Assembly (NCBI GenBank): GCA_016872555.1
Contig: VGZO01000007.1
Location: 38,897 to 102,896, forward strand
Direction: 5' to 3'
Source: Planctomycetota bacterium
GTDB lineage: Bacteria > Planctomycetota > Planctomycetia > Pirellulales > UBA1268
Length of the DNA: 64,000 nucleotides
Part shown: piece after piece, positions 4,283 through 11,100 of the stretch
Position numbering within the stretch: the stretch's first letter is position 1
How the letters are laid out: each line of letters starts with the position of its first letter
Position numbers and translations under genes: made by a program
Notes under the pieces: generated by a model
Told to the model about the DNA's origin: nothing
What the model saw: the letters and a program-made list of their open reading frames with translations, nothing else
Databases searched by the model: none

Positions 4283-5266
4283 TCACTCGGCCGAACCATG
4301 TTCCCGCCACCAGCGCACGGTGGCGGCGAGGCCCCGATCGAAATCCTGTTTCGGCCGCCAGCCAAGGAGCTCCTCTGCCCGGGAGATGTCGAGCGCACGC
4401 CGCGGTTGACCGTTCGGCTTCGTGGCATCCCAAACGATTCGCCCCGTATACCCGCACACGGCAGCGACTTTCGTCACCAGATCCCGGATCGAGATCTCCG
4501 TGCCACCCCCGAGATTGATGGGAATCGGTTCTTCGATGATCTCTGCCGCTGTGACGATCGCCTCGGCAGCATCATCTACGAAGAGAAACTCACGGGTCGC
4601 ATCGCCGGTGCCCCAGCAGACGATCTCATCGGCGCCGGCGACTCGCGCCTCCTCGCATTTACGGATCAGGGCCGGAATGACGTGGCTGGTCGAGGGATCG
4701 AAGTTGTCCCACGGTCCGTACAGATTCACCGGGACAACCACGGTCCCACGCATCCCGTACTGCCTACGGTAGCCGTCGAGCATGACGAAGATTGCTTTCT
4801 TCGCGATCCCGTAAGGAGCGTTCGTCTCCTCCGGATACCCGTCCCAAATCGTCTCCTCGCGAAATGGGATCGGGCAGTACTTCGGATAGGCACAGACGGT
4901 TCCGGTATGGACGAATTGCTCGACGTCATGACGGCGGGCATGCTCGACCAGATGCATGCCCATTGACATGTTGGCGAAGAAAAACCGCCCTGGCTCGGCC
5001 ATGTTCGCGCCGATTCCACCGACCTCGGCAGCCAGATGGATCACCACCTGGGGGCGTGCCGTCGCATACAGCCGCTCGACGTCGCTCTCGAGCGTCAGGT
5101 TGAACTCCCGACGGCGCGGCACGAACAGCCGGGTATCGCTGACACCTCGCTGTCGCAGGACGCGGCATACGGCCCGCCCGAGAAAACCGGCACCACCGGT
5201 GACGACGACACGTTTCTCGGCCAGATCGATCCGCGACACACTCAGCACTCCCCGCTCCGCCCCCAC
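4283..5266 (-). CDS. fcl: GDP-L-fucose synthase (GDP-4-keto-6-deoxymannose 3,5-epimerase/4-reductase)
   Basis: 327 aa. Rossmann motif VTGGAGFLG; LYGPWDNFDPSTSHVIPALIRK, WGTGDATREFLFVDD and KPNGQPRRALD are typical of Fcl/WcaG. Lies directly downstream of gmd. Confidence 0.88.
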   Translation of the reverse strand: MGAERGVLSVSRIDLAEKRVVVTGGAGFLGRAVCRVLRQRGVSDTRLFVPRRREFNLTLESDVERLYATARPQVVIHLAAEVGGIGANMAEPGRFFFANMSMGMHLVEHARRHDVEQFVHTGTVCAYPKYCPIPFREETIWDGYPEETNAPYGIAKKAIFVMLDGYRRQYGMRGTVVVPVNLYGPWDNFDPSTSHVIPALIRKCEEARVAGADEIVCWGTGDATREFLFVDDAAEAIVTAAEIIEEPIPINLGGGTEISIRDLVTKVAAVCGYTGRIVWDATKPNGQPRRALDISRAEELLGWRPKQDFDRGLAATVRWWREHGSAE

Positions 5267-5294
5267 CAGTACGACGCTCGTCGTCCGACACAGA

Positions 5295-6344
5295 TCATCG
5301 GAAATGGAGGCCGGGATCCGCGCAGTTGGCCGCCAACACGCCTTCCTTGTGCGCGATCTCCATGTCGCCCTTGACCATCATCGCCACCAACTCGTCGAAC
5401 GAAACACGCGGCTGCCACCCGAGGCGCTCCCGCGCCTTCTTCGCGGAGCCGAGGAGAAGATCCACCTCGGCAGGGCGGTAATACCGGGGATCGACTTCGA
5501 CATGATCCCGGTAATCCAGCCCGACAGCCGCGAAGGCCTTCTCACAAAACTCCTGCACCGAGTGCGTCTCGTCAGTGGCGACGACGTAATCATCGGGGGT
5601 GTCCTGTTGCAGCATCAGCCACATCGCCTCGACGTAGTCGCCGGCGAATCCCCAGTCGCGGCGGGCGTCAAGATTCCCGAGGTAAAGCTTCTGCTGGAGG
5701 CCAAGCTTGATCCGCGTCGCAGCCCGGGTGATCTTCCGCGTCACAAACGTCTCACCACGCCGCGGACTTTCATGGTTGAAGAGGATGCCGCACGAAGCGT
5801 GCAGCCCGTAGCTTTCGCGGTAGTTGACGGTGATCCAATGAGCGTAGACCTTGGCAACGCCGTAAGGACTCCTCGGATAAAAGGGGGTCGCCTCGGTCTG
5901 CGGCACTTCGACGACCTTCCCGTACATCTCCGAACTGGACGCCTGGTAGAACCGCACCTGCTCGCCCATGGCGTCCTGGTAGTCGCGAATCGCCTCGAGA
6001 AGGCGCAACGTCCCCACTGCCGTCACGTCAGCCGTGTATGTCGGCTGATCGAAACTGACGCGAACGTGGCTCTGGGCAGCGAGGTTGTAAACCTCGGTCG
6101 GCCGGATCTCACGGATCAGGCGCGACAGCGCGTTACCGTCGGACATGTCGCCGTAGTGCAGTTGCAACGGTCGATCGGTGTCGTGGACGTCGCGATAGAG
6201 GTGCTCGATCCGCTGGGTACCGAACGTGCTGGAACGCCGGACGAGCCCATGAACCTCGTATCCCTTCGCAAGCAGCAATTCGGCCAGATACGACCCATCC
6301 TGGCCCGTGATCCCCGTGACGATCGCCCGCTGAGTTCGTCGCAC
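5295..6344 (-). CDS. gmd: GDP-mannose 4,6-dehydratase
   Basis: ORF 5295..6422. [33 protein letters not shown]..., [19 protein letters not shown] and [10 protein letters not shown] are Gmd signatures. Start moved to GTG 6344, preceded by AGAGGA 5 nt upstream; ATG 6422 remains possible. Confidence 0.92.
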
Positions 6345-9662: not shown

Positions 9663-9780
9663 GCCGGTTCACAAAGCGGGACACGATCACGGCAAACGCA
9701 GCGACAGCAGCGGAAAGTCGGATGGTTGCGGCCGATCTTTTCCGCGGAATCCCTCGACCGAACCTGACCTGAGTATACCG

Positions 9781-11100
9781 TCAGATTCCGGGCAGCAAGC
9801 CGTCTCGCCGCCCACGGACGACATCGTTGGAATCATGTTTTTTCGATGTCTTGGGGGCGACTTCCGGCGAGCCACCACCACCTCGACGGAGACGCTCCGC
9901 CGTCGTGCCGTAGGGGGCAAACGGCTTGGTCTCCGTCTCGACTGCAAGCCGTGCCGTTGGCTGCGAAACCGGAAGCAGCCCATCCGACGACACACGTCGA
10001 CCGGCGGTGGCCGCCGACGTCTGCAAGCCGATCGCAATCATTTCGGCCTCGTCCTCCACGACCATCAGTTTCGCGAGCAGATACTGCTCTCCGTACAGCA
10101 TCGCCAAGGCCATCGGCATCATGAACCAGCCGGCGAGGTCGTGAAAAACCATCTCGGCGATTTCTGACGTCGCGATCTGGTACAGCATCCCGGTGACGGT
10201 GATGCGGATGGAGTTGACGATCAATGCGATCGGGATCGCACTGGCGATGATAATCCCGTTCTCCCATGCCGGCCGGTCGCCGAGCATGACCAATGCCACC
10301 GACAACGCGATGAAGATCGTGAGCATTCGCAAGCCACTGCAGGCATCGACGACGCCAAGGTGCATCTCACCGATGACGATCTGGTTACCTTCCTGGAACG
10401 CCTCCAATCCGAACGTCTGCAGTGCGAACGTGCTCACCGTCGTCGCCAAGCCCTGCAACGGCCCGAGAAGGTAACGCGTTGCTTCGTCGGGCAACGGAAA
10501 CATGAAGATCAGGAACGCGATCGGCGCCCAGCCCCACCGCAAACCGCTCCAACCGCACGACAGCAGGAACGCCCCCGCGACGGCCGGCACGAAGGTGTAC
10601 ATGTCGATCGTGACGATGCGGAAGGAGGCAGCGCCGAGCCGAATGCCGAACGCCAACGCGAGCAGGGCCAAGCCCGCCAACCGCGCCGAATCGGTCACCG
10701 GCTCGAGCCGATCGCGCCACCACAGCAACATGCCGGCGGAGAACAGCGGCACGAGCCAGCCGTGCGAGTACTGGGCGTTGCTCCAACTGGCATGGGCGTT
10801 GAGCAAGCCGGGCCAGTAGGCGTAGATCATCAGGCCGACGAAGACCAGCATGGTCACCAGCGGACCGCGCTGGGCCGGTTCGCCAAGATCGCGGCGCAGA
10901 TTGCGGAGCCGACGCACCCAGCCTTCGAGCAGCCCTTCATCCTCGGCCTCAGGTCGGCCGACCACGCCGCCGGCCGATCCTTCCCGGGGCATCACGGCCA
11001 GCCCACCGGCGGAAGTCGGTGATTCGATCGAGGTGCGTTCTATGCCCTGACCAAAGGCATTGACCGTTCGATCCTTGGCTTTCGGCGTCAGCGGCAACAT
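9781..11100 (-). CDS. exosortase (EpsH/Xrt family transpeptidase)
   Basis: 439 aa, polytopic. Family motifs VVDACSGLRML (catalytic Cys), NSIRITVTG (Arg) and FHDLAGW (His). About 90-aa soluble extensions at both termini. Start uncertain (internal ATG at MPREGS...). Confidence 0.88.
   Translation of the reverse strand: MLPLTPKAKDRTVNAFGQGIERTSIESPTSAGGLAVMPREGSAGGVVGRPEAEDEGLLEGWVRRLRNLRRDLGEPAQRGPLVTMLVFVGLMIYAYWPGLLNAHASWSNAQYSHGWLVPLFSAGMLLWWRDRLEPVTDSARLAGLALLALAFGIRLGAASFRIVTIDMYTFVPAVAGAFLLSCGWSGLRWGWAPIAFLIFMFPLPDEATRYLLGPLQGLATTVSTFALQTFGLEAFQEGNQIVIGEMHLGVVDACSGLRMLTIFIALSVALVMLGDRPAWENGIIIASAIPIALIVNSIRITVTGMLYQIATSEIAEMVFHDLAGWFMMPMALAMLYGEQYLLAKLMVVEDEAEMIAIGLQTSAATAGRRVSSDGLLPVSQPTARLAVETETKPFAPYGTTAERLRRGGGGSPEVAPKTSKKHDSNDVVRGRRDGLLPGI

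Follow-up and report, generated by a model that had tools for sequence, protein, structure and literature searches.

Exosortase, Wzc-like and EpsI genes followed by gmd and fcl at a conserved locus of freshwater Planctomycetota

An exosortase gene that stands in one row with genes for GDP-L-fucose synthesis raises the question whether protein sorting and sugar-nucleotide supply belong together. Such a row is found at 4283-11100 in a 64-kb stretch of contig VGZO01000007.1 (assembly GCA_016872555.1), in the following called the window. Its source is an uncultured planctomycete from fresh water. Five genes on the minus strand encode, in reading order, an exosortase (Xrt, 439 amino acids (aa), 9781-11100), a Wzc-like polysaccharide co-polymerase (PCP) of the PCP-2a type with an ATPase of bacterial tyrosine (BY) kinase fold (7344-9662), EpsI (6504-7286), the GDP-mannose 4,6-dehydratase Gmd (5295-6422) and the GDP-L-fucose synthase Fcl (GDP-4-keto-6-deoxymannose 3,5-epimerase/4-reductase, 4283-5266). 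An initial annotation had named these genes with correct positions and identities, as seen from the open reading frames (ORFs), the scores of hidden Markov models (HMMs) and, for Fcl, solved relatives. It had further described PEP-CTERM sorting as genetically fused to GDP-fucose supply. We consider it fairly probable that the locus is a core exosortase module typical of its lineage, formed by the trio of exosortase, Wzc-like protein and EpsI and followed by a sugar-nucleotide adjunct.

The five encoded proteins

The exosortase was assigned to its family by profile searches, with 196.4 bits against PF09721 (cutoff 25.7) and 140.3 against TIGR02602 (cutoff 105.55). The Cys-Arg-His motifs recognized in the initial annotation, Cys254 (DACSGLR), Arg299 (NSIRIT) and His320 (FHDLAG), were invariant in an alignment of 16 orthologues. 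The membrane core (aa ~75-345) is polytopic with about eight transmembrane (TM) helices, and a hydropathy scan agrees with the eight long helices (aa 75-364) of an AlphaFold2 (AF2) model. This model is of low confidence (predicted local distance difference test, pLDDT, 54) and too poor to base a fold search on.

Extensions of about 90 aa at both ends had been described as soluble. They are real ORF sequence, but not conserved domains. The tails (aa 1-56 and 346-439) are of low complexity with pLDDT <50 and vary in length and sequence among relatives. For the core, identity within the lineage amounts to 60-70%. Tails of this length were found in the closest relatives only; most other listed homologues have ~340-400 aa. 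The only semi-conserved part of the ends is a short helix ahead of the first TM helix (aa 57-72). The tails contain three copies of a short D-(E)-G-L-L motif, as DEGLLEG (aa 54-58), SDGLLPV (372-376) and RDGLLPGI (432-437). Relatives down to 66% identity retain the DGLLPGI at the very C-terminus but not the remaining tail, and this short linear motif may serve in docking.

The initial annotation had proposed classification with subfamily HMMs. The generic exosortase model was passed, but no named subfamily model (XrtA, B, C, D, K, N, O, Q, T, V, W, X, Z; CrtA-C) reached its cutoff. The best scores were those of XrtD (183, cutoff 400), XrtW (144, cutoff 425), XrtA (127, cutoff 208) and XrtV (119, cutoff 313). 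More than 900 homologues were detected, the best 120 of which are 55-95% identical; all named ones are from metagenome-assembled genomes (MAGs) of Planctomycetota. A search against representatives of 50%-identity clusters returned 459 clusters at E <1e-30. Ten sampled relatives with 35-57% identity likewise passed the generic model only and none of the named Xrt subfamilies. A large planctomycete exosortase clade lies outside the current named subfamily models.

The Wzc-like protein reached 115 against TIGR01007 (cutoff 108). Two TM helices (aa 97-120 and 503-523) enclose a long periplasmic region, which is the architecture of PCP-2a proteins. EpsF-type similarity to TIGR03017 covers aa 115-549 of it (E 1.6e-12). 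The EpsG model TIGR03029 also matches (E 4.9e-25), with a P-loop domain of EpsG/Wzc type at aa 566-767, and the cytoplasmic BY-kinase-fold ATPase comprises aa ~560-772. Wzc of E. coli K30 (PDB 7nhr) matches aa 465-760. The P-loop, SSGEHEGKTT in the translation, was not matched by the canonical pattern G-x4-GK[ST]; like Walker A' and Walker B (LLIDGDLR and VVIDSGP) it is intact.

A Tyr-rich tail had been reported to be absent from this protein. Its last 30 residues hold indeed one Tyr, and 0-2 were counted in 69 orthologues. In contrast, homologues from Singulisphaera, from a Gemmataceae MAG and from the assembly GCA_963767535.1 have 3-4 Tyr in their tails. Thus, judged from these counts, the tyrosine cluster has been lost in the lineage of the window. 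The true start of the protein is probably Met30 at position 9575, since the gene is called there in a 92%-identical relative (L001).

EpsI is encoded by a separate gene and is thus free-standing, as had been noticed before. It scored 53.6 against PF11984 (cutoff 26.1) and 30.1 against TIGR02914 (cutoff 42.8), and a 98%-identical protein is named 'exosortase-associated EpsI family protein' by NCBI. An N-terminal membrane anchor (aa 4-31) is followed by an alpha/beta periplasmic domain, modelled with confidence by AF2 (pLDDT 77), and by a disordered C-terminal tail. In the orthologue alignment the motif CATPH.ASGHTPDRCYP, a Cys/His-rich loop, was invariant. Foldseek matches to DcrB, LpqN and MTC28 were weak (E ~0.01, TM-score 0.27-0.41) and were not built on.

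Gmd reached 555.5 against TIGR01472 (cutoff 415) and 497 bits against PF16363, and it is 72-97% identical across the lineage. Fcl scored 291 against NF047922, below the cutoff of 500; even so, every other family is behind by 56 orders of magnitude in E-value. The closest solved relatives of Fcl are all GDP-fucose synthases matched over the full length, with the E. coli enzyme (1bws) at E 3.4e-70. T123, C125, Y152, K156 and H195 of Fcl align with S107, C109, Y136, K140 and H179 of this enzyme. We take S107/Y136/K140 to be the catalytic Ser/Thr-Tyr-Lys triad and C109/H179 to be the epimerisation pair.

Conservation of the gene order

One genome per species was scanned for the locus and the window proteins were located by tblastn. 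This gave 80 related loci, all from MAGs, which are labelled Planctomycetota, Planctomycetia or Pirellulales apart from a few with obviously wrong labels; many bear names of freshwater-lake isolates, and many originate from Lake Mendota. The order exosortase, Wzc-like protein, EpsI on one strand was found in all 67 loci holding the three genes. Hence this arrangement is not due to chance. EpsI is encoded one gene away from the exosortase on the same strand in these 67 loci and also in three distant planctomycetes (L084, L086 and L087, see below). Its separation from the exosortase by the kinase-fold gene, which had been pointed out as peculiar, is therefore the standard planctomycete order.

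Some MAGs titled 'Candidatus Kuenenia stuttgartiensis', 'Chitinophagaceae', 'Chitinophaga' or 'Planctomicrobium piriforme' (L007, L019, L029, L035, L040, L043, L046, L047 and others) share the syntenic block of those MAGs that are labelled Pirellulales. Their public taxonomic labels are thus probably wrong. In about 50 of the 80 loci an A24_N membrane protein of ~290 aa (prepilin-peptidase N-terminal domain, CxxC...CxxC) is encoded immediately 5' of the exosortase gene and in its orientation, for example at 8962-9828 (+) in L014. No such gene is present at 11100-11366 of the window or in its closest relatives.

The distance between the genes from fcl to the exosortase gene amounts to 28, 81, 57 and 118 nt by ORF coordinates, the last value rising to 205 nt with Met30 as start of the Wzc-like protein. 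The gaps are therefore short, as had been annotated, but the range of 28 to 159 nt given before needs correction. With the same strand and the gaps of 28-81 nt, gmd and fcl are probably co-transcribed with the trio, as far as gene spacing can indicate this.

Sufficient downstream sequence was available for 61 loci. Both gmd and fcl follow directly 3' of EpsI in 47 of them, fcl only in 11, gmd only in one and neither gene in two. All 11 genomes with fcl only share one variant of the Wzc tail, so this state probably goes back to a single loss of gmd. In this subclade of species-level genomes (L039-L044, L048, L052-L055, L057) the Wzc tail is free of tyrosine and ends with SGVSDSGTGSAKRFPA. Hence gmd-fcl is a probable facultative adjunct to the trio for sugar supply, common but dispensable.

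Cultured groups were reached when one of the ten sampled exosortase relatives served as query. More distant planctomycetes carry the same trio, with exosortases ~36-47% identical to that of the window in L084, L086 and L087. In Singulisphaera sp. Ch08 (CP155447.1, L086) exosortase, Wzc-like protein and EpsI are followed by Wzy_C and glycosyltransferases, and in the Gemmataceae MAG (L087) by Bac_transf, glycosyltransferases and a deacetylase. Bac_transf and a glycosyltransferase follow in the 4.8-Mb assembly GCA_963767535.1 (L084). These three loci resemble the window in trio order, in the use of one strand and in exosortases of one planctomycete family, but they lack gmd, fcl and the divergent UPF0104 gene. 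In a further locus (L085), Wzx, glycosyltransferases and rmlB/rmlC-like genes lie just upstream of the exosortase/Wzc-like pair. Sugar-nucleotide genes beside the module are therefore recurrent. From these comparisons of gene content, the trio appears as an old, phylum-wide unit which normally heads a complete polysaccharide cluster of Wzx/Wzy type. The sugar-nucleotide genes beside it seem to differ by lineage, and the lineage of the window would have kept gmd and fcl only. As a side observation, the EpsI homologue of L084 matches in two frames (13539-14021 and 13687-14199), and the gene caller gives a product of only 120 aa, which looks like a frameshift or a mistake in the assembly.

From their position, gmd and fcl may plausibly be coupled to the trio, because they lie on the same strand with short gaps in the slot where relatives carry polysaccharide genes. 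Precedents at the level of the organism are Nostoc and Rubrivivax. The cyanoexosortase CrtB of Nostoc punctiforme is needed for PEP-CTERM exoproteins and for motility dependent on a fucose/galactose-containing polysaccharide (PMC12188702). In Rubrivivax gmd and fcl lie within a cluster for exopolysaccharide (EPS), alongside a PEP-CTERM cluster (PMC3684757).

The divergent gene upstream of the exosortase (11366-12616, plus strand) encodes a UPF0104/LPG_synthase_TM membrane protein with a flippase-like domain (PF03706, 120 bits). It was present in this position in 63 of 63 lineage loci, but it is not adjacent in L084, L086 and L087, the three distant loci for which the upstream flank was examined. 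It had been suggested as a flippase candidate, a role for which the argument is its synteny within the lineage. The gene is a conserved neighbour by these comparisons and at most a putative member of the module.

Proposed function and alternative explanations

One PEP-CTERM protein, a candidate substrate of the exosortase, is encoded in the 64 kb and thus in the same genome. This NHL-repeat protein (57690-58796, minus strand) has a signal peptide and, according to a tail scan, ends with VPEPGS, a TM helix and RRRR. It scored 20.2 against PF07589 (cutoff 20.7). Six orthologues from other metagenomes (53-60% identity) all keep VPEP, TM helix and Arg run; thus the signal is a canonical PEP-CTERM and under selection. 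The protein is rich in Ser/Thr and N-x-S/T sequons. Its gene overlaps a downstream DUF1559/H-X9-DG prepilin-type gene by 4 nt (56683-58796), and in the orthologous locus L093 a gene with prepilin-type N-terminus likewise lies 3' of the PEP-CTERM gene. This suggests a conserved pairing of PEP-CTERM protein and pseudopilin.

The following function is proposed by analogy to the PEP-CTERM/exosortase model (Haft 2006) and to the genetics of Zoogloea, Aquincola and Nostoc. After export by Sec, proteins would remain tethered via VPEP, TM helix and Arg run at their C-terminus. With Cys254, Arg299 and His320, the polytopic exosortase would cut at the PEP motif and free the protein, which may then be handed over to an acceptor of the envelope or of the polysaccharide matrix. 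EpsI would be the membrane-anchored periplasmic partner of the exosortase, and the Wzc-like protein an inner-membrane/periplasmic scaffold of a polysaccharide pathway of Wzx/Wzy type. Because the tyrosine cluster appears to be lost, this protein would draw on the binding and hydrolysis of ATP and not on a cycle of tyrosine autophosphorylation. Gmd and Fcl would turn GDP-mannose into GDP-L-fucose for the glycan, and glycosyltransferases, flippase, polymerase and outer-membrane exporter would be encoded elsewhere in this lineage.

Several results weigh against this proposal. A domain scan of the window, which covered all but one ORF with coding-type codon composition, detected no Wza, Wzx, Wzy or priming transferase and no fucosyltransferase; nor was a Poly_export or low-molecular-weight phosphatase domain (Wza, Wzb) found in any scanned protein. 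The observation made earlier that polymerase, flippase and priming transferase are not nearby, so that remaining parts would be elsewhere, thus holds. A scan for PEP-CTERM tails in the window and 83 related loci revealed no such gene near the cluster, only that at 57690, which fits a many-to-one sorting system. Scans for sigma-70 promoters and intrinsic terminators (3900-11800) gave nothing above shuffled expectation and are uninformative on transcription units. With the alignments of exosortase and EpsI, profile searches of the PDB returned no relative of solved structure by sequence. To our knowledge, neither the chemistry of exosortases nor the role of EpsI has been demonstrated biochemically.

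Further points of this kind concern gmd and fcl and lead to a second explanation. The two genes may be inherited neighbours only, with their own promoter and GDP-fucose for general envelope glycans (lipopolysaccharide, glycoconjugates), while the trio uses polysaccharide genes elsewhere. A block of ~20 kb is equally syntenic over ~80 species representatives, from SurA-like to UvrD. It includes unrelated housekeeping genes (SurA-like, glycosyltransferase, Ham1, GcvT-like and NUDIX, with UvrD in many loci), and for this reason the adjacency of gmd and fcl alone is weak evidence of functional coupling. Furthermore, gmd is gone in the 11-genome subclade with fcl kept, both genes were lost twice and fcl once; gmd and/or fcl are therefore missing from their position in 14 of 61 loci via at least four separate events. 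Distant planctomycete trios do without gmd or fcl. The conservation of gmd and fcl (70-97% across the lineage, compared with 44-95% for the trio) is as expected for core metabolism. In contrast, the two genes lie on the strand of the trio with gaps of just 81 and 28 nt, 47 of 61 genomes retain them, and their place after EpsI is the one that polysaccharide biosynthesis genes fill in other planctomycetes. We regard mere neighbourhood as possible, though rather unlikely. The expression 'genetically fused' is nevertheless too strong, because gmd or fcl is missing in part of the lineage, the surrounding block is equally syntenic and distant planctomycetes carry other polysaccharide genes at this place. 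The compact fucose-linked module of the initial annotation is partly supported.

More speculatively, the trio could be a dedicated envelope complex which in this lineage has lost both its polysaccharide genes and the tyrosine switch. What is left would be a minimal machine that depends on the kinase-fold ATPase and joins sorted PEP-CTERM proteins to an acceptor containing fucose. We regard this idea as doubtful; if true, it would offer a compact system for defining the exosortase acceptor and the role of EpsI.

Still less probable is a glycoprotein system instead of an EPS system, in which the trio sorts directly fucosylated PEP-CTERM proteins and the Wzc-like ATPase scaffolds protein export. 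The missing Wzx, Wzy, Wza and priming transferase in the 64 kb would fit, as would the restriction of the tyrosine cluster loss to this lineage and the Ser/Thr-rich candidate substrate with its N-x-S/T sequons. However, other planctomycetes have the homologous trio within classical clusters of Wzx/Wzy type, and the Wzc-like protein has retained its EpsF-type periplasmic region. The missing genes can also lie elsewhere in the genome, and no fucosyltransferase was seen.

Recent acquisition of the 4-12 kb segment as a genomic island, suggested by the lower G+C content (62-65%) and G+C at third codon positions (GC3, 0.74-0.81) of the five genes than in most of the window (~70% and 0.82-0.94), can practically be dismissed, since the same genes with the same neighbours occur in ~80 species-level genomes, with exosortase identities as low as 45%, and no mobility genes, repeats or tRNA were found at the cluster borders. 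Rfam and tRNA scans gave no match inside or beside the cluster.

A core module of exosortase, Wzc-like protein and EpsI with a facultative sugar-nucleotide adjunct thus remains the reading we favour. For the window itself this means a sound annotation without surprise. Exosortases are widespread. Planctomycetes keep a fixed trio, and one abundant freshwater lineage has it in a minimal form, with GDP-fucose genes only and devoid of the tyrosine switch. A comparative handle is provided by Singulisphaera, a culturable relative in which this trio is present.

Among the neighbouring genes, uvrD/pcrA (1861-4257) is convergent with fcl at a distance of 25 nt. Only two glycosyltransferases were found in the window. 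The ORF of the first runs from 17619 to 18845; the start had been annotated correctly, but not the end at 18782. The second is of GT4 type (316 aa, 32598-33548) and lies directly upstream of a class-3 fructose-1,6-bisphosphatase. The window has ~70% G+C, and its hallmark families of planctomycetes are a DUF1559/H-X9-DG pseudopilin, PSCyt1/PSCyt2/PSD1 and DUF1501. At 26462-30884 a DUF1501 protein (494 aa) is encoded beside a PSCyt1/PSCyt2/PSD1 protein with F5/8 type C domain (947 aa), a typical planctomycete pair. A saccharopine dehydrogenase-like ORF (30502-32562) overlaps the 5' end of the gene for the 947-aa protein by ~380 nt; probably one of these two genes has been given too early a start.

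Comparison with known systems

The locus belongs to the known exosortase/PEP-CTERM kind, for which a generic annotation by NCBI exists. Genes for exosortases are located among those for EPS, and PEP-CTERM proteins are prone to glycosylation (PMC1569441); in planctomycetes an exosortase has been known since RB2461 of Rhodopirellula baltica was listed in 2006 (PMC1569441). In the open-access literature searched, no description of the planctomycete trio was found.

The proteobacterial XrtA/PEP-CTERM systems involved in floc formation of Zoogloea and Aquincola (PMC9850573, PMC1569441) share with the window the VPEP/TM/Arg signal, the exosortase with Cys, Arg and His and the link to exopolysaccharide. 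In contrast to these systems, the exosortase stays below the XrtA cutoff, no PrsK, PrsR or PrsT was seen in the window, and PCP and kinase are fused and not separate, with weak matches to TIGR03007 and TIGR03018. The XrtD model (VPLPA-CTERM, TIGR04152) aligns with the exosortase core at model positions 3-271 (E 9e-54). XrtD differs in its EpsI-homologous C-terminal region, with which the separate EpsI of the window aligns (310-428). Its cutoff is far from being reached, and the candidate substrate has VPEP, not VPLPA. The cyanoexosortase B of Nostoc punctiforme belongs to another subfamily (CrtB score 46 for the window protein, cutoff 300) and shows another genomic organisation.

With Wzc of E. 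coli K30 (7nhr) the Wzc-like protein has in common two TM helices, a periplasmic domain and a C-terminal P-loop domain with Walker motifs. The tyrosine cluster is lacking, however, and neither Wza nor Wzb is encoded nearby.

The methanolan cluster epsF-epsG-epsH-epsI of Methylobacillus sp. 12S is the founding EpsH/EpsI locus (PMC1569441). In both loci a chain-length determinant, a BY-kinase-fold protein, an exosortase and EpsI adjoin, and the window proteins match TIGR03017, TIGR03029, TIGR02602 and TIGR02914. The scores are far below the equivalog cutoffs, while the generic TIGR02602 is passed. Unlike in Methylobacillus, the tyrosine cluster and adjacent glycosyltransferase or exporter genes are missing from the window, and the counterparts of EpsF and EpsG form one protein of 743-772 aa between exosortase and EpsI. 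Judged from domain content and gene order, the planctomycete arrangement thus appears as a permutation of the Methylobacillus epsF-G-H-I block in which EpsF and EpsG are fused.

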